Shown in pieces: positions 25,370 through 61,984 of a stretch of DNA of 64,000 bases. The position numbers and the translations under genes were made by a program. Each line of letters opens with the position of its first letter. Within the stretch, counting starts at the first letter, position 1. The notes beneath the pieces are model-generated. The model searched no databases, was not told where the DNA came from, and was given only the letters and a program-made list of their open reading frames with translations. The stretch covers positions 12,400 through 76,399 of the forward strand of contig CAZQFL010000001.1 of NCBI GenBank assembly GCA_964592745.1, read 5' to 3'. This stretch comes from an uncultured Desulfurococcaceae archaeon (GTDB lineage Archaea; Thermoproteota; Thermoprotei_A; Sulfolobales; NBVN01).

Positions 25370-27283
25370 CTACCCTGATTGTAGGGCCTTTAACGCTTCA
25401 GGTATTGTGAACTCAAGTTTGAGTTCTTTAAGTTTATCAGGTAATGGTATACCATTCTTGCTCCATCTTCTTAATTCGTAATATTTATCTAACATAGTGT
25501 TTAATTCCTCAGCTGAGACTATGTACTCCTTGCCATCCCTTGTTTTAATCTTTTCATTCATTATTCTCCAGGGTAATGTATCATGTATTCTCCTTCTTCC
25601 TTCTCTCACTTGAATCATTCTCTCTAAAGTCACGATTCTCTCTCCATCAGTCAATATTGTTTTAGCGTCCTTCCCAATACCTGTTGCAGCAGTGAATAAT
25701 TCACTCATGAGGTATTCATCAACAGCGAAGCCAGCTGTAGTTATGAATGCGCAGAATCCTACACTATCAGTTATTGCGTACATCTCTTCATGCCATTTAA
25801 CGATTTCAGGTCTACCCTCAACCTTACCTACGCCAGCCCATTCCCTATGACCTGTTATTCTCTCTATCAACTTCTTAGCATCTTCAGTGAATCCAAACTC
25901 AGCAAATGTCTCAGTATGTAGGTGATCAGGACCTCTAGGGTTAAGTGCGAATGCTAAGGCATATGCCTTAGCTACCCTAGTATCAACTCTTGAGTGCTCA
26001 AGCCCATTAGCTTCAACAGCCCATTTACATGTTTCTGGATCTACCTTCCTACAGGCACGAGATAGACCCTCAGCTAGTAGATCACCAATACCTTCTCTTC
26101 TAGCTATCTTCTCAATAAGTTTCAATGCTGCTTCAACATTACCCCATATAGGTTCAGTACCTAACTCCTTCACTATCCCCTTTAAGTATCCCCTTTCATA
26201 AGTTTCCATAACCCATGCAATAACGCTGCCTAGTGAAATGGTATCTAAGCCGTAAATGTTTGCTAAATCATTCATCTTTATTAAGGCATCAGTGTCTGCA
26301 TTACCTATATTCCCGCCAAGTGCGTTAGAGGTCTCATACTCAGGACCTACTGTGTCAACACCTCCAAACTTATTGGTCTTGGTATGTCTATGACAGCTAA
26401 CTATGCATTGAGCACATCCAACCCTGCCTATGAGGTAGCCGGCCTCAACATAGTATTCACCTGAGTTCTTGTACGCGTGCTCCCAGTATGACTTTCTGAA
26501 GTTGTAAACAGGTAATGTACTAGTACTATCTAGACCCATAGTAGCACTAGCCGTACCGAACTTAGCTGTAGCTATTAAAGCCTCATCTTTCATTATATTC
26601 CTAACAACCTTCATAGCAAGTTCGTAATACTTCTTAGGATGAGCTACCTCAACATTTGTAGCACCCTTTGAGACTACAATACCCTTCAGTTTCTTAGATC
26701 CGAGTACAGCGCCTCCGCCACCTCTTGCAGCAACGTTATATATGGAGACATTAATTGAGGCATACTTAACTAATCTTTCACCGGCAGGTCCTATGAGTAG
26801 TGTATCCGCATGTACACCATGCCTCCTTATTAACTCATTATGGGCACTTCTAACATCTAATCCCCATAAATGTTTAGCAGATCTTATCTCAACATGATCT
26901 CCCTCAATATATATGTAAACAGGTTCCTCGGATGCTCCGTGGATAACTATTATGTCATACCCATTCATTTTAAGTTTTAAACCGAAATCACCACCAACAC
27001 TTGACTTAAAATACCTACCAGTTGCTGGACTCTTAAATGTAACAATAGTCCTACCAGCACTAGGCATTGGAGTACCTGTAAACGTCCCTGCACCCACCAT
27101 TAAGACATTGTCAGGAGCTAATGGGTCGGTACTAGGTTTAACTAAATCCCAATATAGTCTTGCCATAATACCTCTAGATCCTATGAACATGCTTAGCAAG
27201 TCATTACCGAACTTTTCAACCCATATCCTACCATTACTTAGATTCACATGAAGTATCTTACCATGAACTGCGTACATCTTCAA
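25370..27283 (-). CDS. aldehyde:ferredoxin oxidoreductase family (tungstopterin) enzyme
   Basis: 637 aa. N-terminal MYAVHGKILHVNLS... AOR fold start, CAQCIVSC cluster motif, DSVGFCAF motif. Confidence 0.9.
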   Translation of the reverse strand: MKMYAVHGKILHVNLSNGRIWVEKFGNDLLSMFIGSRGIMARLYWDLVKPSTDPLAPDNVLMVGAGTFTGTPMPSAGRTIVTFKSPATGRYFKSSVGGDFGLKLKMNGYDIIVIHGASEEPVYIYIEGDHVEIRSAKHLWGLDVRSAHNELIRRHGVHADTLLIGPAGERLVKYASINVSIYNVAARGGGGAVLGSKKLKGIVVSKGATNVEVAHPKKYYELAMKVVRNIMKDEALIATAKFGTASATMGLDSTSTLPVYNFRKSYWEHAYKNSGEYYVEAGYLIGRVGCAQCIVSCHRHTKTNKFGGVDTVGPEYETSNALGGNIGNADTDALIKMNDLANIYGLDTISLGSVIAWVMETYERGYLKGIVKELGTEPIWGNVEAALKLIEKIARREGIGDLLAEGLSRACRKVDPETCKWAVEANGLEHSRVDTRVAKAYALAFALNPRGPDHLHTETFAEFGFTEDAKKLIERITGHREWAGVGKVEGRPEIVKWHEEMYAITDSVGFCAFITTAGFAVDEYLMSELFTAATGIGKDAKTILTDGERIVTLERMIQVREGRRRIHDTLPWRIMNEKIKTRDGKEYIVSAEELNTMLDKYYELRRWSKNGIPLPDKLKELKLEFTIPEALKALQSG

Positions 27284-27287
27284 GCTA

Positions 27288-27806
27288 TCACCCCCTAAGC
27301 TCCTTCAAAACCTCTTTTAACTTAGTGAGTGATTGAGTAGCTAAAAGAAATCTCTCTTTACTAAAACTCTTTGTTAATTCAACTATTCGTAATGCCCCAG
27401 GCCAACAAACCTTAACACACTGAGGATCACCACCACATAAATCACATATTAATGGGTAAGCATAAACCTCAGGATTGAAGTTTATCGCATGGTAGGGACA
27501 TGCCTCAACACACTTACCACACTCAGCACCTAAACACTTACTCTCTATAATCTTAGGCATACCTGTCTTCTCATCCTTAACAATAGCTCCTGTAGGACAC
27601 ACCTTAGCGCAAGGCATTCCAGGGCATGAGATACACACCATAGGTATAAAGACGGCTTTAGCTTTATCCTTCCATATCACTATCCTAGATAATAGCGTTG
27701 ATGACTTACCAAAATGAGTGAAACTACATATTAACTCACATAAGTGGCATCCAGTGCACTTCCCTAAGTATTGAGAGGTATTTACTTCATAACCTTGACT
27801 AACCAA
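27288..27806 (-). CDS. 4x[4Fe-4S] polyferredoxin subunit
   Basis: Four Cys clusters (CTGCHLCELIC, CISCPGMPCAKVCP, CLGAECGKCVEACP, CDLCGGDPQCVKVC). Lies 4 nt upstream of the AOR gene. Confidence 0.85.
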   Translation of the reverse strand: MVSQGYEVNTSQYLGKCTGCHLCELICSFTHFGKSSTLLSRIVIWKDKAKAVFIPMVCISCPGMPCAKVCPTGAIVKDEKTGMPKIIESKCLGAECGKCVEACPYHAINFNPEVYAYPLICDLCGGDPQCVKVCWPGALRIVELTKSFSKERFLLATQSLTKLKEVLKELRG

Positions 27807-28686: not shown

Positions 28687-28870
28687 AATATTCTTGAGCT
28701 AATACTTAAAAGTCTTGATGACTGTTAAAAAGATGAATAGTGACTAAAATAGTCTCTTTAATAGTTTATAAAAGTATTTAAATCTAGTAAAGAGTGTGTT
28801 CTTGATATTTAATTAAATATTTTCTAGGAAAGATTAAATCTCATACCAATATTACTCAAAGGGGTAGTTT

Positions 28871-30817
28871 TTGTTAAGGGTAAAGGTACTTCATGTTAAT
28901 GTATCTACATGCAAGTATGAAGTAAAAGAGTATGGAAATGTCTTGGGTCCTTTAGATTTAGGTATTGAGTTACACCTCAATTACTACAAGAGTTATGGCT
29001 ATGAGGTTTTCAATCCTAATAACGTAGTAGTTCTTGGTAAAGGACCATTTGTAGGTGGTGGTCTCTTTGGTGCTCATAGACTTGTGTTTGTATTTCGAAG
29101 TCCCGTGACTAAAGGATTATACGCTAGCACTCTTGGTGGTGCTGCTTACGCATTTATGGGTGTTGGTGTCGATGCTTTAGTTATTGAAGGTAAATCAGAA
29201 CATCCATTAATTATATTTCTTAAAAGTTCTAATGATGGTGAAATAAGCGTTAGATTTGAAGTAGTTGATAAGATTCATGACATTTACCATAATTATGATG
29301 GCTTTAAGGGTGTGAGAGCGTTAGTTCGTTATATATTAAGTAATTATTGGAACTTTATTAAGGATGCCAAAGCCAGAATTGCAGCTGTAGGACCGGCTTC
29401 ATTTAATTCAGTCTTCGGTGCTATATATTCACCAGTAATAGATTACGTTACTCGTAAGATCTTAGTAGAAGATTGGGCAGCTAGAGGAGGCCCAGGCTCA
29501 GTACTAGCTCAAGCGCACAATGTGGCGGCCATAGTCTTTGGAGGAGATAACTACAAGCTAATACCTAAAATATTAAGGAGGTTTGATTCCGTAAGCGGTA
29601 TCGTAACTGCAATTCTTGGGGAGTCTTACGTAAAGAAGGTAATAGAGACTACGAGTAAGTATAGTTACGACCTAGACGTAAGGAGTGGAGGAACCTTTGG
29701 TAGTAATTATAAGATCTATAAAGAGAAGGTTCCATACTTTAACTGGAGGACATTAGAATTATCAAGTAATCTACGTAGGAAGATATATGATATCATAATC
29801 AATTACCTATGGAAACCATTTAACGAGAAGGTCATTAGTAGTGGCATTTGGCATACATGCGGTGAACCATGCATAGTTAAGTGTAAAAAGGTTGATGAAA
29901 GAGGTAGAAAGATAGATTATGAACCATATAATGGCTTAGGACCTCAATTAGGTATATTTAACTTTGATGATGTTAGTGATGTAGTTGATCTAGCAGATAC
30001 TTATGGCTACGACGCTATAGAACTTGGTAATATCTTAGCATTCTTATTTGAAGCGTTAAGTAAAAACTTATTAAGACCCGATGAGTTAGGTCTAGACGGT
30101 AAACCTCATTACGATCCTGAGACATATAATCCTAAATATTCATCTCGAAATGCATTAGTAGCCATAAAGATTATAGAGAATATGACTTTAGGTAAGAGTG
30201 ATACATTAAAAGTTATAGCTAGGGAAGGTCTCAGAACTGCATTAAAGAAGTTGAGTAAGTCGCTTGAAGAGAGAACTAAGAAAGTAGGTTTGAAGTTTGA
30301 GGATATAGCTGTCTACGTACCTTACGGCGATTACGGATACATAACACCTAACTATTATATATCACCAGGTGTTCTAGCTCCATTAGCTGTACTTGGGAGA
30401 TACTGGACACTTTACTCATTGGCTTTCATGGACCCTGAAGAGTATGCTGCAGCAGCATTAGATAGAGCATTAAAGGAGTATTTACTAGATAATGCAGGGT
30501 TATGTAGGTTTTATCGTAGGTGGGTTGAAAAGCACCTTCAAGATCTTTATAAAATTGTTTATGGTGTTGAGGTTGATTTAATGAAACATGCCAAGGAGTA
30601 CTATAAGAAGGTTATAGAATACCAGGCAAAATCCAACGCTCTTCCAAGATTTTGGGAGAGCACTAAAGTAATTAAGCTATTAGAGAGCATGGCTTGCGAG
30701 TATGGTTCAAAAGAGTGGTGTGAGAAATTTAAGAAGTCACCTAAGGATGCAGCTTTAGAATGGTGGTCAAGATTTGTTAGGTATTTAAGTAGTAATCTTG
30801 GTGTGAAATTTACTTAG
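28871..30817 (+). CDS. divergent aldehyde:ferredoxin oxidoreductase family protein
   Basis: 648 aa. AOR-like N-terminus (LRVKVLHVNVS...), CGEPCIVKC, DNAGLCRF motif. TTG start after AGGGGT. Confidence 0.8.
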   Translation: MLRVKVLHVNVSTCKYEVKEYGNVLGPLDLGIELHLNYYKSYGYEVFNPNNVVVLGKGPFVGGGLFGAHRLVFVFRSPVTKGLYASTLGGAAYAFMGVGVDALVIEGKSEHPLIIFLKSSNDGEISVRFEVVDKIHDIYHNYDGFKGVRALVRYILSNYWNFIKDAKARIAAVGPASFNSVFGAIYSPVIDYVTRKILVEDWAARGGPGSVLAQAHNVAAIVFGGDNYKLIPKILRRFDSVSGIVTAILGESYVKKVIETTSKYSYDLDVRSGGTFGSNYKIYKEKVPYFNWRTLELSSNLRRKIYDIIINYLWKPFNEKVISSGIWHTCGEPCIVKCKKVDERGRKIDYEPYNGLGPQLGIFNFDDVSDVVDLADTYGYDAIELGNILAFLFEALSKNLLRPDELGLDGKPHYDPETYNPKYSSRNALVAIKIIENMTLGKSDTLKVIAREGLRTALKKLSKSLEERTKKVGLKFEDIAVYVPYGDYGYITPNYYISPGVLAPLAVLGRYWTLYSLAFMDPEEYAAAALDRALKEYLLDNAGLCRFYRRWVEKHLQDLYKIVYGVEVDLMKHAKEYYKKVIEYQAKSNALPRFWESTKVIKLLESMACEYGSKEWCEKFKKSPKDAALEWWSRFVRYLSSNLGVKFT

Positions 30818-38824: not shown

Positions 38825-38946
38825 TTCAAAAGCCTATTTTTACGAGAATAAACCTCCATATCTTCGTTAGGCTTCACATTAATTCTTATTTTTAATTACC
38901 ATGACTACTTATTAATCAGTTAGAACATGTTTAAGAAGGATTTAAC

Positions 38947-39888
38947 ATGTTTGCATTTGGTCCTGTACCGTCTCGAAGATTAGGTATGAGTTTAGGTGTT
39001 AATAACATACCTCCTAAAATATGTACCTATTCTTGCGTTTATTGTCAACTCGGTAGAACAATAAGATTAAGTATTGAGAGGAGAGCTTTTTACAATGTAG
39101 ATACAGTCATTAATGACGTTGCAAGAAGAGTTAAAGAAGTTAGAAATAGTGGTGGCATAATTAACTATATAACCATAGTACCTGATGGTGAACCGACACT
39201 AGATGTTAACCTAGGTAAGTTAATTAAAGGAATTAAAGATTTAGGTATACCTGTAGCTGTAATAACTAATGCATCACTTATGTGGAGGGATGATGTAAAG
39301 AATGACTTAATGTCTGCTGACTTAGTGTCTGTTAAAATAGATGCGGTAAGTGAGTCAATATGGAGGAAAGTGAACAGACCTCATAAAAGTTTAAATCTTG
39401 ACTCAATCCTTGAGGGTATAAGAGTATTTTCAAGGGAATTTAAGGGTAAGTTAATTTCCGAGACTATGCTCATAGATCATATAGATTATAATGAGGAATT
39501 AAATAAAATAGCGAAATACTTAAGTAGCTTAATTAACCTTAGTAAGGCTTACATAGCTGTACCTACAAGACCGCCTGCTGAGACATGGGTTAAGCCTGCT
39601 ACTGAAGACACACTAGTTAAGGCATATAGGGTATTCTCATCAATATTGGGGAGAGAGAAGGTCGAGTACTTAATTAGCTTTGAGGGAACGAATTTTGCAT
39701 TTATTAGAGGTGATGCTGAAGAATTGTTACGTATAGCTTCGGTACATCCGTTAAGAGAGGATATTATTGAGAAATTCCTTAAGAAATGGGGTAAGGATTG
39801 GAACTTTATATATGATTTAGTAAGGAAAGGACTGCTTAAGGAAGTCATTTACAGCGGTAAGAGATATTTCATTAGGAGGATAAGGTAG
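38947..39888 (+). CDS. radical SAM protein
   Basis: FGPVPSRRLGMSLGVNNIPPKICTYSCVYCQLG (Cx3Cx2C). Confidence 0.8.
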   Translation: MFAFGPVPSRRLGMSLGVNNIPPKICTYSCVYCQLGRTIRLSIERRAFYNVDTVINDVARRVKEVRNSGGIINYITIVPDGEPTLDVNLGKLIKGIKDLGIPVAVITNASLMWRDDVKNDLMSADLVSVKIDAVSESIWRKVNRPHKSLNLDSILEGIRVFSREFKGKLISETMLIDHIDYNEELNKIAKYLSSLINLSKAYIAVPTRPPAETWVKPATEDTLVKAYRVFSSILGREKVEYLISFEGTNFAFIRGDAEELLRIASVHPLREDIIEKFLKKWGKDWNFIYDLVRKGLLKEVIYSGKRYFIRRIR

Positions 39889-54371: not shown

Positions 54372-54656
54372 GTGAAAGGTAAGATTTTCAGAAGGACTTT
54401 AAGGAAGGCATTAACAATAGTTAATAACTTATTTAAAGCTAAATCCATTGAGTATATCTACGTGGAGTTAAGAGAACTTGAGAATGTATTCACCTTAATA
54501 GTTCTCGGCTCATTTATAGGGCTTCCAAGTCCCCCGACAACTATATCCCTAAGGCTTCTTCCTTATATGGCTAGAGAAATAATTATTAGTACAAGTGTGA
54601 GCAGTAGATTAAACGACATGTTAGCTGAGATGGCTGGATTATTTGAAATAACTTAA
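54372..54656 (+). CDS. hypothetical protein, first gene of the ArsA-like operon
   Basis: 94-aa ORF 11 nt upstream of the ATPase gene. GTG start, no motif recognised. Confidence 0.45.
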   Translation: MKGKIFRRTLRKALTIVNNLFKAKSIEYIYVELRELENVFTLIVLGSFIGLPSPPTTISLRLLPYMAREIIISTSVSSRLNDMLAEMAGLFEIT

Positions 54657-54667
54657 GCGGGGGTATA

Positions 54668-55681
54668 ATGTTAAGTAGTAACTTTAAGGTTGTGTTCTTC
54701 ATGGGTAAAGGTGGGGTGGGTAAAACAACATGTGCAGCGGCTTTCGCTTTAGGGACATCAATCAAGAAGAGAACATTAATTGTATCGCTAGACCCTGCCC
54801 ATAATCTTGGTGATGTATTTGGTATAAGATTAAGTGATGAGCCGAAGAGAATCACTAATAATTTATATGCTATTGAGGTAGATTTTGAGAGAATGATTAG
54901 TAAGCACCTTAAGAGTTTAACTGATAAGGTTAAGGACATATATGGGTATTTAAGAGTACTAAATTTAGATAGGTATATTGATGTATTGAGGCACTCACCA
55001 GGTATTGAAGAATACGCTACGCTAGATAAGATAATGGAGATTTTAAAAAGTAATGTAGAAAGTAGAAAATATGATATCGTAGTTTTCGATACCCCACCAA
55101 CTGGTTTAACGTTACGAATTATGGCATTACCGTCAATATCAGCTATATGGGTTGAAAAATTAATGAGATTAAGAGAAGCCATTCTCGATAGAAGAAGAAT
55201 AATTGAGGAGGTTACTGGCGAGAAGATCAAGACCGTAATTAAGGGTAAGGAATTTGAAATGCCGTCAGATAAAGAGGAGGATCCCATATACAGGGAGTTA
55301 ATTCATATAAAAAGAGAGATAGATTTTGTAAACTCAATAATCAGGAACTCTAATGTGTGTATGACAGTATTAATAGTTAATCCTGAAGTCTTGCCTATAT
55401 TTGAAGCTAAGAGAGCTCTTGAATTTTTATCTAAGCTGGGCATAAATGTTCAATATGTAATAGTAAATAAAGTATTTGAGATTAGTGAGACAGCATCATT
55501 ACCTAAGGAGTTAGTAACGAAGCTAAGTCAAGAGAAAGAAGCCTTACAATTAATAAATAACTACTTTAAGCACCAGATAGTAATTAAGGTACCATTACTT
55601 TATGAAGAACCTAAAGGCCTAGACAAACTCATTACCTTCAGTAGGTATCTATCTAAGCTGATCGATAATGCGGTGGTTTAA
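54668..55681 (+). CDS. ArsA/Get3-family ATPase
   Basis: Deviant Walker A GKGGVGKTT, DPAHNL, DTPPTGLTLR. Confidence 0.85.
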   Translation: MLSSNFKVVFFMGKGGVGKTTCAAAFALGTSIKKRTLIVSLDPAHNLGDVFGIRLSDEPKRITNNLYAIEVDFERMISKHLKSLTDKVKDIYGYLRVLNLDRYIDVLRHSPGIEEYATLDKIMEILKSNVESRKYDIVVFDTPPTGLTLRIMALPSISAIWVEKLMRLREAILDRRRIIEEVTGEKIKTVIKGKEFEMPSDKEEDPIYRELIHIKREIDFVNSIIRNSNVCMTVLIVNPEVLPIFEAKRALEFLSKLGINVQYVIVNKVFEISETASLPKELVTKLSQEKEALQLINNYFKHQIVIKVPLLYEEPKGLDKLITFSRYLSKLIDNAVV

Positions 55682-55684
55682 GGT

Positions 55685-56335
55685 ATGACCCTAGACCTCA
55701 ATACTTACGACATATTCTTAATAGTATTTGTAATTGCCGTTATCGCTGTTCTTCAATTTTTTAGGGGTAGAAAGTTAAATCTCATACTTATAGAGTATAC
55801 AGCTAGGATATTTGAGGACATTCTAAAACCTAAGGATAAGGAGTATCAATGGATAGGTTTATACGTTGGTTACAAAGCTAGATTCCTAACACCTTATAAG
55901 TCCTTGGTAAGAACTGAAGCTGTAGTAACATTAATGCCTAGACATAGTCTATTTTACCTCCCAATAGCTTTTATAACATCAAGATTTGATAGGTTATACA
56001 TGTTTTTCAGGTATAATAGGAAATTCGTTAATGAGGCCCATATCATTAGGAAGCATTACTATAGGTTAGGTCCTCATAGAGTCATTAGGGGTATTGAGCG
56101 TATGGCTTTTGAAAGTATAGAGATCAAGGGAAAAACTTACTACCTAATATATAATGATTTAAGAATTGCTAGAGAGCTCGTAAATATTGTTAAAGGGTTA
56201 AGTGACCCCCATATAATTAACCATTTAGCGATCGTATCATCGAATAGTAGTTTATATGTGGCAGCTAAGATAACCCCCCAAACGTTCGAAGAATTAGTAA
56301 GGAAAATGTATATGTTGGCCCGCGAATTTGCTTAA
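55685..56335 (+). CDS. hypothetical protein with N-terminal membrane anchor
   Basis: 216 aa. N-terminal TM IFLIVFVIAVIAVLQFF. Starts 3 nt after the ATPase stop. Confidence 0.55.
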   Translation: MTLDLNTYDIFLIVFVIAVIAVLQFFRGRKLNLILIEYTARIFEDILKPKDKEYQWIGLYVGYKARFLTPYKSLVRTEAVVTLMPRHSLFYLPIAFITSRFDRLYMFFRYNRKFVNEAHIIRKHYYRLGPHRVIRGIERMAFESIEIKGKTYYLIYNDLRIARELVNIVKGLSDPHIINHLAIVSSNSSLYVAAKITPQTFEELVRKMYMLAREFA

Positions 56336-56369
56336 ATAGTGTGGATTAAATTAATAAGAGAAAAAGGGT

Positions 56370-56702
56370 TTACTCCTTACCTAGCATCTTCTTAAGCTCC
56401 TTTATTCTTTCTTCAACACTCTTTAATTCATCTTGTAAATCTCTTAGATCCTCCTCAAGAGCTTTCTTATAGTCTTCAAGCATAGCTAATTCCTCCTCAG
56501 GAGTTTGCGGTGGTGGAGGTGGTGGCGGATAGTAATAATATGGTGGGTATGGATAGTATTGCGGTGCCTGTTGCTGACTCTGAGTAGGCTGCTGCTGTGA
56601 TTGTGGTGGCTGTGGTTGATAGTAGTAATATGGTGGAGGCAGAGGTGGCATGAAGTACATCATTCTTCTAAAGAGCCTGAACCACCAACTCACACTGTTC
56701 AC
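56370..56702 (-). CDS. Pro/Tyr/Gln-rich small protein with C-terminal coiled coil (DUF5320-like tail)
   Basis: 110 aa: WWFRLFRR, PPLPPPYYYYQPQPPQSQQQ...YYPYPPYYYYPPPPPPP, then EEELAMLEDYKKALEEDLRDLQDELKSVEERIKELKK. Confidence 0.6.
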   Translation of the reverse strand: MNSVSWWFRLFRRMMYFMPPLPPPYYYYQPQPPQSQQQPTQSQQQAPQYYPYPPYYYYPPPPPPPQTPEEELAMLEDYKKALEEDLRDLQDELKSVEERIKELKKMLGKE

Positions 56703-56740
56703 CTATGAATTAATGCTTAATCAGGAAATATACTTATGCA

Positions 56741-56944
56741 TTACTGCTTACTTACCTCTAAACTCTTTGGTAATGCCTCTAATGCTTTTCTCCACGTCTC
56801 TAAAGCTACTTTATATGTCTCAAACATTAATGCGTAATAGTATGGCCATATCATCCAATACATTAATGAGCTCATAAGTGCTAGAGGATCTGGCGGGTAT
56901 GGCATGTAGGGTGTCATGTAGTACCATGGATACATTGTTATCAC
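56741..56944 (-). CDS. Tyr/Trp/Met/Pro-rich small protein
   Basis: 67 aa, MITMYPWYYMTPYMPYPP...MYWMIWPYYY plus an amphipathic C-terminal helix. The ATG overlaps the upstream stop by 4 nt. Confidence 0.5.
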   Translation of the reverse strand: MITMYPWYYMTPYMPYPPDPLALMSSLMYWMIWPYYYALMFETYKVALETWRKALEALPKSLEVSKQ

Positions 56945-57234
56945 CTAGGCCAGAAATATGGTGTGTAATACCATGGCATCGTCCAGTACGGGTAGTACAG
57001 CATGTAGGGGTACTGCATGTACGGTATCATGTAGTAGCTATACCATGGATAATACCATCTCAGGCCCCAAGGCCACCCGAAAAGCCACCAGCACGCACCT
57101 CTACCAAACATCCATCCAGGCCTCATCCATGGTGGTAAATGACTGAATGGTCCTCTACCAGGCCATGGACCCCACCATCCACCTCTACGTCCACCTCTCC
57201 AACCCCAACCAAAACCTCCAGACCACCAAGCCAT
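56941..57234 (-). CDS. Trp/Gly/Arg/Tyr/Pro-rich small protein
   Basis: 97 aa with 18 Trp, 14 Tyr, 16 Gly, 14 Pro, 8 Arg and no Asp, Glu or Lys (hand count). Preceded by GAAGGGTGA and AT-rich TATA-like boxes. Confidence 0.55.
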   Translation of the reverse strand: MAWWSGGFGWGWRGGRRGGWWGPWPGRGPFSHLPPWMRPGWMFGRGACWWLFGWPWGLRWYYPWYSYYMIPYMQYPYMLYYPYWTMPWYYTPYFWPR

Positions 57235-57316
57235 AGATTCACCCTTCTGTGCTACTGCACAAAAATTAATAAATCTTAATTAAAATTCCTTATTATTGTG
57301 CCAAGAGTTCTAACTT

Positions 57317-57371
57317 TAGGTGATGAACCCCCATCAGCCGATACGTGATGAGACAGGCTGAGCGCTGATTT
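57317..57371 (+). ncRNA. C/D box sRNA candidate
   Basis: C GTGATGA (57320-57326), 11-nt guide ACCCCCATCAG, D' CCGA (57338-57341), loop tac, C' GTGATGA (57345-57351), 13-nt guide GACAGGCTGAGCG, D CTGA (57365-57368). Intergenic. Confidence 0.6.
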
Positions 57372-60724: not shown

Positions 60725-60880
60725 TAGTGGTTGCCCGCGCCCGTGAGTTAGGTTATTTTAGCTACTTCGGATATTTGTGATTAGTTCGGGCACGGGCTTT
60801 CCTTCATCGGGTTCGGGGGTTTCATCTCCTTCGAGGGCTTTCGGGGTCTCCACGGAACCATGAGACCCCACATCCCGGGT
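60725..60880 (-). ncRNA. possible TnpB-associated omega/right-end RNA scaffold
   Basis: GC-rich, strongly structured 3' end of tnpB in an AT-rich genome. Stems GGGGTCTC (60843-60850) / GAGACCCC (60862-60869) and GCCCGTG (60739-60745) / CACGGGC (60791-60797). Confidence 0.35.
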
Positions 60881-61984
60881 TAAGAGTTTCAATTCTCTAA
60901 GTGCTAGGTTCCATGAAGCAACAATGTCTCTTGTAATCATATGTCCGTTGGGTAGTCTTACCCATCTATACTTAACGAATACTAGCTTACCACCGATAGG
61001 TGAGGTTTTAGAGGTTCCTCTAGGATTAACATACACTATATGTATTCCTTCGATTAACGCCTTATAGTGTATGTATGACTGTATTCTACGGTAAGTCCAT
61101 AGCGTGAGCTTCCTATTAAGCTTCCTAGAACCATTAGCTCTACTTTTGAGTTTATTCAAGTCTTCGAGAACTATTAATGCATTGTACTCTTTTGCTATTT
61201 CCACTATTCTCTTAGATACATAGTGACATGCATCTATGATTATGTTTCTTGCTCTGCGTCCATGTCTTCTAATAGCTTCTCTTATTCCTTTAACGTACCT
61301 CCACTCCTTAGAGTACTTCTTCTGTATCTTTTCAGCAATTACCTTATGGGCTAGTGCCCTCTTTAAGCCATTAAATGGTATGACACCCGCTGTTACGAGT
61401 TTACCACTCATACTGATTATTGTATAGGTTATGTTGCCGAAGTTAATATCCACGCCCATAACGGTTACTGGTTATTTAAACGCCATTTTCTTCTCGAATG
61501 TGAAGTAGACCAATATTTCGTTATCTCTATAACTCACTAGTATTTCCTTAAGCTTCCATAACCCATTAAAGTATCTATCTAGGTAGCTGTACCATTGTAG
61601 TTTCAACTCTACCCACTCATTGTTGAGAACAGCCATATTCAAGATCCTATTATTCACGTCTAATCTGTGATCCCATTTGTCTAGCCTAGCTGTTAATTTC
61701 CGCAGTACTGGTTTACTACCATTATTCTTCTTTACCGCTTTAACTACTTCCCTAGCTCTACGCTCAATCTTATGGCAGTGATGAGCTCTAAATCCTTGTT
61801 TCCTAAGTATCTTGTAAAACCTATGGTGTAGCTCCTTAAATGAAGGTACATGGTTTAGCCTCCATATTTCATTAACCACGTATTGTGTCCAGTCTCGATA
61901 CGCTCTTAGAAACTCTAATAATCTATGATAGTGAGTAGGGTCGGGGGTAACCGCCTTGACCTTAGCGGTTACTACGACCCTTAT
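60758..61984 (-). pseudogene. tnpB: tnpB (RuvC-like RNA-guided nuclease family) with in-frame TAA and no canonical start
   Basis: The two listed ORFs are in the same frame, separated only by TAA (61474..61472). RuvC motifs GVDINFG, VLEDL, TRDIVASWN. The N-terminal homology continues upstream to an ATA codon (61984..61982). The four zinc-finger Cys are absent (TSKTSPIGG...RLPNGH). Confidence 0.8.

Follow-up and report, generated by a model that had tools for sequence, protein, structure and literature searches.

A stretch of DNA of 64,000 nucleotides (nt) from an uncultured Desulfurococcaceae archaeon (contig CAZQFL010000001.1; hereafter the window) carries on its minus strand a genuine three-gene operon, here called A-B-C, that encodes small non-enzymatic proteins. 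In relatives, genes of the A, B and C types are linked in the genome to genes for NifX-like proteins, MinD-type ATPases and DUF134 proteins. Because in those relatives the module is co-operonic with, or fused to, NifX/IssA-like carriers, and also co-operonic with MinD-type ATPases and DUF134, we propose a role in metal-sulfur handling. The trio may be accessory or scaffold subunits of a system resembling the ORP complex and IssA, with the helices of B and C holding them together as a hetero-oligomer; we offer this reading tentatively, as one that falls somewhat short of probable. Several things are new at this locus: the split architecture of A and C with its aromatic tail, a separable and near-invariant core absent from the Pfam model, the family to which B belongs, and an explicit fusion and operon link between IssA/NifX-like carriers and DUF5320 (PF17253), a family of small proteins from anaerobic archaea and bacteria that is uncharacterised.

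Gene A (56941..57234) encodes 97 amino acids (aa) from an ATG start. Gene B (56741..56935) also starts with ATG and encodes 64 aa, with an alternative GTG at 56944 that would give 67 aa, and gene C (56370..56693) starts with GTG and encodes 107 aa, with an alternative GTG at 56702 that would give 110 aa. An earlier note on this DNA had described three minus-strand open reading frames (ORFs) here, ending 34 nt from a convergent operon. The frames are present where it placed them, and the gap is correct, as the convergent gene, encoding a 216-aa protein, ends at 56335. Two of the gene starts call for revision. The second gene had been given an ATG overlapping the first gene's stop by 4 nt, but the 67-aa form starts at the GTG at 56944, and it is this codon that overlaps the stop of A. 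The start common to homologues and gene callers is the ATG at 56935 (MYPWYY), 5 nt past A's TGA. For the third protein, the motif WWFRLFRR, the Pro/Tyr/Gln-rich stretch and the coiled coil all stand, but the length of 110 aa gives way to 107 aa; the second GTG (56693, MSWWF...) is most likely the start of C, as in homologues (MSYWWYR...) and gene calls. The sequence GGTGA lies 4-5 nt before each of the three supported starts.

All three frames are kept at orthologous loci in related genomes, the check that the earlier note had called for. Strong purifying selection acts on all three genes, with pairwise ratios of nonsynonymous to synonymous substitution (dN/dS) of 0.06-0.16 for A, 0.07-0.22 for B and 0.03 for C. 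Indels among the orthologues are all multiples of three, and synonymous sites are saturated against the related locus L007. The trio was called on 10 metagenome contigs and is retained in diverged relatives, at 98, 64 and 105 aa in L009 and 91, 61 and 92 aa in L007. A structured RNA, which the earlier note had named as one finding that would count against protein genes here, did not emerge: no Rfam family matched anywhere in the window, and a tRNA scan of the window found none. The antisense shadow ORFs (up to 86 aa) were rejected as genes; conservation sits in the sense frames, and the antisense ORFs are present because the codon composition of the sense genes yields them. A programmed frameshift or readthrough joining A and B was likewise rejected because the A-to-B spacing ranges from about -94 to +20 nt across loci with no fixed frame relation, the overlaps of about -94 nt being an artefact of longest-ORF start choice. 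A viral origin was rejected as well, there being no relative in IMG/VR.

Gene A falls into three parts. A cationic N-terminus rich in Trp, Gly and Arg (aa 1-23; nt 57166-57234, minus strand) is followed by a near-invariant core, WPGRGPFSHLPPWMRPGWMFGRGACWWLF (aa 24-52; nt 57079-57165, minus strand), which holds the sole Cys, C48, and by a tail rich in Trp, Tyr, Pro and Met (aa 53-97; nt 56944-57078, minus strand). Among 54 aromatic-tailed A homologues the core is about 90% identical, and this level of identity extends over at least 63 archaeal species. The consensus shared by the homologues at large is WPGRGPFS[HY]LPPWxRPGW[LIV][FY]GRGACWWLF, in which 14 columns are invariant and 10 near-invariant, including the single Cys. 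Database searching returned 86 A homologues from Thermoproteota, Methanomethylicota, Bathyarchaeia, Korarchaeota and other groups, among them P0056 of the cultured Pyrofollis japonicus, and an exhaustive profile search with the core gave 86 representative clusters. A scan of archaeal species-representative genomes found at least 304 core-encoding loci and extended the core to Hadesarchaea, Thermoplasmata, Methanocellales, Thermococci, Brockarchaeota and Asgard archaea. Pfam and NCBIfam searches with A gave no match, and PDB sequence-profile searches with the core and with B gave chance-level matches only, SerRS at E 0.014 and designed tetratricopeptide-repeat proteins.

The link to DUF5320, which the earlier note had suggested, is real and runs through C. 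This protein has a cationic-aromatic N-terminus (MSWWFRLFRR), a Pro/Tyr/Gln-rich linker and a DUF5320-type coiled coil, TPEEELAMLEDYKKALEEDLRDLQDELKSVEERIKELKK (about aa 64-107; nt 56373-56504, minus strand), through which it matches PF17253 at 23.9 bits (E 9.9e-5), below the gathering threshold of 27 bits. Neither A nor B matches PF17253 at E <= 1. For A this is expected because the model is carried by the coiled coil. As to whether the core corresponds to the N-terminal part of the profile, residues 1-89 of homologue P0028 align to profile positions 10-98 and residues 4-106 of P0159 to positions 18-99, yet P0127, which has the core motifs and no coiled coil, gives no match.

The same two halves occur joined in relatives. 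In nine homologues (P0014, P0017, P0028, P0031, P0036, P0049, P0054, P0062 and P0073) a coiled coil of the form ...PEDE[IL]xxLEExxKxLEEELKxxExRIxELK takes the place of the aromatic tail, and single chains of core plus coiled coil pass the PF17253 cut-off (P0014, 30.5 bits; P0028, 27.9; P0036, 34.6; P0054, 28.5; P0086, 29.6). The core is fused to a coiled coil in 7 of 63 non-redundant loci and has a separate neighbouring coiled-coil gene in 48. Since the halves that are separate genes here are joined in relatives that pass the cut-off, A and C together appear to be DUF5320 split in two, C having the family's C-terminal coiled coil and A its Gly/Arg-rich, single-Cys N-terminal module. No single chain in the window combines a Gly/Arg-rich, Cys-containing N-region with a C-terminal coiled coil, so the version found here would be a split derivative rather than a canonical DUF5320 member. 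It differs from the family in three further respects: A ends in a tail of about 45 residues rich in Trp, Tyr, Pro and Met where relatives have the coiled coil, its core shows much stronger conservation than the Pfam profile, which does not capture it, and a third conserved partner, B, belongs to no family. The earlier proposal of a DUF5320 architecture divided over tandem paralogues is thus upheld for the division between A and C, but not for the paralogy, as A, B and C are three distinct families.

In more distant relatives of the core a further motif, C[AQ]RFPWLPRWWW, is present, as a rule together with a C-terminal coiled coil; relatives of this type include P0127, P0146, P0148, P0159 and P0181, together with ORFs at L086 4038-4286 and L090 7887-8186. 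Some loci carry three different DUF5320-type genes in a row, including two-coiled-coil forms of 176-177 aa. The family has therefore passed through repeated duplication and domain shuffling.

Gene B encodes an aromatic, Pro-rich head followed by one long helix, predicted by AlphaFold2 at aa 17-63 (predicted local distance difference test score, pLDDT, 74.4), which ends in a charged amphipathic segment. Five sequences share 27 invariant columns, and the conserved motif reads DP[FL]xLM...WM[IV]WPYYYALMFETY[KR]...W[RK]KA[LI]E. B has no relative in Pfam, NCBIfam or the PDB. In 33 of the 63 loci, all from Thermoproteota-type lineages, it is the next gene after A and shares its strand. B is a distinct family and not a paralogue of A or C. 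B, the 216-aa protein and the ArsA of the convergent operon match records OYT48440-OYT48442 of Desulfurococcales archaeon ex4484_42, the probable source, exactly, and B is annotated there as "hypothetical".

To describe the neighbourhood in relatives, ORFs within 4 kb of the core were clustered in the 63 non-redundant loci and representatives scanned against Pfam; partners were counted within 5 kb of the core. DUF134 (PF02001), a helix-turn-helix (HTH) family resembling sigma-70 region 4, occurs in 36 of 63 loci, a NifX-like Nitro_FeMo-Co domain (PF02579) in 29, and a MinD-type ATPase in 26, the last figure including a few generic P-loop matches such as the window's own ArsA. At least one of the three is present in 50 of 63 loci. 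The NifX-like neighbours mostly bear Trp/Gly/Arg-rich N-termini of their own. The MinD/ParA-type neighbours are tandem proteins of about 290 aa with two inserted 4Fe-4S motifs, and the best NCBIfam match of these tandem MinD-type and NifX-like neighbours is MrpORP, below threshold. Less frequent neighbours are a metallo-beta-lactamase-fold protein, a generic radical S-adenosylmethionine (SAM) protein, aldehyde:ferredoxin oxidoreductase (AOR; near the trio in 7 loci) and DtxR-FeoA regulators (near the core in 7 loci).

Several of these arrangements are tight operons. With intergenic gaps in nt in brackets, and MinD standing for a MinD-type ATPase with a 4Fe-4S insert, locus L037 reads A<1>B<32>C<20>NifX<5>MinD<8>MinD, L034 reads A<12>B<6>NifX<13>MinD<9>MinD, and L035 reads A<9>C<8>NifX-NifX<13>MinD<-4>MinD; tight operons occur also in L028 and L025. 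Fusions make the same connection. A C-type coiled coil is fused to a NifX-like domain in 13 ORFs, among them L018 1859-2575, which matches both PF17253 (28.7 bits) and PF02579 and to which C is 58% identical over 53 aa (E 8e-16). In L025 a cation-diffusion-facilitator transporter is fused to a NifX-like domain, and in L026 an A paralogue adjoins an Mrp/NUBPL-type ATPase. None of this linkage to NifX/IssA-like, MinD-type and DUF134 genes, by operon or by fusion, figured in the earlier note.

Small zinc-ribbon or rubredoxin-like proteins with CxxC...CxxC motifs and Gly/Arg-rich tails also recur in the clusters (for example L070 7803-8042, L084 7798-8037, L042 7354-7548 and L064 4416-4655). Low-complexity segments rich in Trp, Gly and Arg are common to at least four families, namely A, the NifX-like proteins, DUF134 and the zinc ribbons, and single-linkage clustering merged these families because of them.

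Two described systems offer a comparison for such a set of genes. In IssA of Pyrococcus furiosus a NifX-like domain leads through a Pro-rich stretch into a disordered, cationic tail made up chiefly of Trp, Gly and Arg, which has been proposed to wrap anionic thioferrate (FeS2-) chains; IssA forms Fe-S storage nanoparticles (PMC5524996). Tails of this kind were defined by a pI of at least 9, fewer than five Cys and at least 20% Gly in the terminal 40 residues (PMC5524996 supplement). By that definition A carries such a segment: 12 of its first 40 residues are Gly (30%), and the protein has 8 Arg and a single Cys but nothing acidic. In relatives, the NifX-like proteins encoded next to A share this tail chemistry at their N-termini. 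Across A homologues, Gly makes up 33% of the N-terminal segment, aromatic residues 26% and Arg 12%. The second system, the ORP complex of Desulfovibrio, brings together two proteins with [4Fe-4S] ferredoxin motifs (Orp3/4), an Fe-S carrier of the Mrp type and a NifX-like protein (PMC6345978), and it is to this set that the tandem MinD-type ATPases with 4Fe-4S inserts and the NifX-like proteins beside A-B-C in relatives bear a likeness.

Under the metal-sulfur reading, the helices of B and C likely assemble the trio into an oligomer that would cluster several A cores and their cationic-aromatic segments. The assembly would then bind, store or hand over anionic iron-sulfur or other metal-sulfur species; the Trp/Gly/Arg segment may wrap the anion electrostatically and through its aromatic residues, in the manner of the IssA tail, and the clustered A cysteines may serve as ligands. 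AlphaFold2 predicts A to be disordered (pLDDT 46.5 from a 34-sequence alignment), with no autonomous fold, and this together with the single long helix predicted for B fits a partner- or ligand-dependent assembly.

A number of points weigh against this reading. The NifX-like, 4Fe-4S-insert MinD and DUF134 genes are all absent from the 64-kb window, and the trio stands alone both in this DNA and at about 13 of the 63 loci. A few generic P-loop matches are included in the MinD count. The resemblance of A to IssA is compositional only and drawn from the published description of IssA; the Trp/Gly/Arg segment is N-terminal in A but C-terminal in IssA, and A, B and C are without the IPR003731/PF02579 domain that IssA has. 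The ORP complex is bacterial and sigma-54-regulated, its parts are not in the window, and published work ties it to cell division, not to storage (PMC6345978); in that literature no DUF5320-type protein is connected with it (PMC6345978). A search for co-mentions of DUF134, NifX and MinD returned nothing relevant, a review of methanogen iron-sulfur biology is silent on IssA's neighbours, and a literature search on DUF5320/PF17253 returned nothing functional and no experiment on any DUF5320 protein. A single Cys per chain makes a weak ligand set, and guilt by association cannot separate structural, chaperone and regulatory roles. The aromatic tail, the most striking feature of the locus, is left with only a vague stabilising role.

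That tail calls for a closer look at the composition of A, which the earlier note had counted exactly: 18 Trp, 14 Tyr, 5 Phe, 16 Gly, 14 Pro and 8 Arg, with no Asp, Glu, Lys, Asn or Val. Seven Met and one Cys are also present. Against a background of the window's 41 long ORFs (Trp 1.2%; Asp, Glu, Lys, Asn and Val together 30%), the probability of at least 18 Trp in 97 aa is about 1e-16, and that of none of the five missing residues about 5e-16. A has the highest Trp content of the window's 166 stop-to-stop frames of at least 60 codons, and its GC content is 52% as against about 37% for the window because of its TGG, GGN and CCN codons. In the 54 homologues the tail keeps its composition (Trp, Tyr and Phe 46%; Pro 20%; Asp, Glu and Lys about 0%) rather than its sequence, with an identity of 39% compared with 32% for shuffled tails, and 23 of the 54 tails finish in WW.

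Such a pattern invites the idea of a self-assembling aromatic and proline-rich material unrelated to metals, a heat-stable condensate, fibre or membrane or envelope matrix, in which pi-stacking of the Trp/Tyr-rich regions would drive assembly and the coiled coil would oligomerise. The predicted disorder of A, the prion-like linker of C and the isolation of the trio in its window neighbourhood all agree with it. A parallel exists in eukaryotic low-complexity domains of the FUS type, whose RGG and aromatic segments combine Gly and Arg with aromatic "stickers". A is likewise predicted to be disordered and conserved in composition rather than order; the analogy goes no further than that, since there is no homology, and A is archaeal and thermophilic, much richer in Trp and Pro, and attached to an invariant Cys motif. 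The idea of a metal-free material leaves unexplained both the near-invariant 30-residue core with its Cys and the repeated operon and fusion linkage to NifX-like and MinD-type genes. There is no signal peptide, and inspection by eye revealed no convincing transmembrane segment. In fused relatives the coiled coil replaces the aromatic tail, which argues that the tail is dispensable for the core role of the family. We regard a purely structural material of this kind as improbable.

The tail would have a more definite part to play if A, B and C formed the protein matrix of an unrecognised archaeal storage or biomineral particle, built on iron-sulfur (thioferrate-like) or another metal sulfide. 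Here an oligomer would be nucleated by C's coiled coil and B's helix, the Trp/Gly/Arg segments and the invariant Cys motif of A would bind an anionic inorganic polymer, and pi-stacking of the Trp/Tyr/Pro tails would give a shell that is heat-stable and possibly redox-conductive. This more specific form of the metal-sulfur idea seems to us unlikely; if it were true, the DUF5320 family would be the missing partner of IssA/NifX-like carriers in anaerobes.

A regulatory role has to be weighed alongside these structural ones. A and C, with or without B, could be sensor or co-regulator partners of DUF134, resembling an anti-sigma factor or a co-repressor, with the conserved core binding DUF134 or a ligand and so tuning transcription of the cluster. 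DUF134, which has sigma-70 region-4 HTH matches, is the commonest neighbour outside the trio and typically lies divergently and immediately upstream; in L027 a single ORF of 200 aa begins with DUF134 and continues with the A core and a helical C-terminal region. The sequence upstream of A also bears on this possibility. Reading on the minus strand, a TATA-like sequence TTTATTAA (57266-57273) marks a putative promoter, a palindrome GTGCAGTAGCAC (57249-57260), a candidate operator, lies between it and the start of A, and a Shine-Dalgarno-like GGTGA (57239-57243) stands 4 nt before A's ATG, so that 57239..57273 on this strand may act as the promoter and leader of the operon. Both the TATA-like TTTATTAA and the palindrome GTGCAGTAGCAC fall within a 29-nt block, AAGATTTATTAATTTTTGTGCAGTAGCAC, of which the window, L009 and L007 carry identical copies even though the synonymous divergence (dS) between these loci is at least 0.8; the palindrome is fully conserved among them. 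A second upstream block (57316-57338) is also identical in all three, and in L007 and L009 an inverted repeat GGTGA..TCACC is found there. Both blocks lie in the intergenic stretch between A and the divergent Na+/H+ exchanger gene and are candidate promoter or operator elements.

Set against a regulatory module are the lack of any DUF134 gene in the window and the balance of fusions, NifX-like fusions outnumbering DUF134 fusions by 13 ORFs to 1. Nor would a simple co-regulator typically have aromatic tails conserved in composition, a helix protein of its own and a coiled coil. We consider a regulatory function doubtful, though the first among the alternatives, and it is not mutually exclusive with a role in metal-sulfur handling. 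At the other end of the operon, a T-rich tract CCCTTTTTCTCTTATTAA (56351..56368, minus strand), just after C's TAA and inside the 34-nt gap, is likely an archaeal oligo-T terminator. A scan for bacterial-type terminator hairpins found nothing, but scanning for bacterial-type promoters and terminators is uninformative for an archaeon.

The contrast between core and tail could also be read as the leader and core of a ribosomally synthesised and post-translationally modified peptide (RiPP). In such a scheme the conserved core of A would be the leader, the variable aromatic part would be cross-linked by a radical SAM enzyme, and B and C would be accessory recognition proteins. A conserved N-terminal part followed by a hypervariable aromatic C-terminal part does resemble that organisation, and a radical SAM gene adjoins the trio in 9 of the 63 loci, with a close homologue 17 kb away in the window. 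These radical SAM proteins, however, match only the generic PF04055, with no SPASM or RiPP-maturase signature, and none of the annotated families among the 25 most recurrent neighbour families is a peptidase or an exporter. Other forms of the family have a coiled coil rather than an aromatic tail, and a leader would not typically be 90% identical from phylum to phylum. We find a RiPP-like precursor very unlikely.

The window's radical SAM gene itself (38935-39885, plus strand) encodes 317 aa; its best NCBIfam matches are far below threshold, and it is a close homologue (phmmer 2.9e-58) of the radical SAM genes adjoining the trio in the nine other loci. The window also encodes an AOR of the tungstoenzyme family (25373-27304, minus strand), paired with a poly-ferredoxin-like 4Fe-4S protein (27291-27806, minus strand), and a second, divergent AOR-like gene (28868-30814, plus strand). 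Radical SAM and AOR families are common in such organisms.

On one side of the trio in the window lies the convergent operon (54372-56335, plus strand), which encodes a DUF7990 protein (94 aa), an ArsA/Get3-type ATPase (337 aa; PF02374, 228 bits) and the 216-aa protein, for which there was no Pfam or NCBIfam match. Exactly matching records label the ATPase "anion transporter" and the 216-aa protein "hypothetical". The earlier note had drawn attention to this operon; the adjacency holds, but synteny is limited to the closest relatives, L007 and L009 with the window, and the adjacency is probably incidental. One could suppose that the trio are clients of this ATPase, tail-anchored or otherwise hydrophobic cargo, given the 34-nt spacing to the DUF7990-ArsA-216-aa operon and the membership of ArsA in the same P-loop ATPase superclass as the MinD/Mrp partners found elsewhere. 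Beyond those three loci our data contain no wider co-occurrence, and the convergent orientation implies separate transcripts. With its high Pro content (20% as a family mean), the tail of A, which is predicted to be non-helical, cannot form a transmembrane helix; B's own helix ends in its charged amphipathic segment. Of all the explanations weighed, this one deserves the least credence, and we give it hardly any.

On its other side the trio is flanked by a divergent gene pair encoding a Na+/H+ exchanger and a CBS-domain protein. Farther away, a 233-aa ORF (60758-61459, minus strand) corresponds to a gene annotated on contig L001 as Cas12f1-like TNB (TnpB-type). Contigs L002, L003 and L009 carry a different 286-aa gene in its place, which suggests a strain-variable insertion next to a Pelota gene at this position.

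DUF5320 is a widespread family of anaerobes without an experimental literature, and the present locus sharpens its definition. The family can now be described as having a separable, near-invariant Cys core, halves that occur as separate genes, and, in Thermoproteota, an obligate-looking third helical partner. A is among the most extreme natural aromatic and proline compositions under clear purifying selection, which gives it value for the study of protein disorder and of assembly at high temperature. Should the tentative metal-sulfur reading hold, the trio would bear on how anaerobic archaea store and traffic iron-sulfur species without canonical machinery, and it provides a testable hypothesis for that biology.

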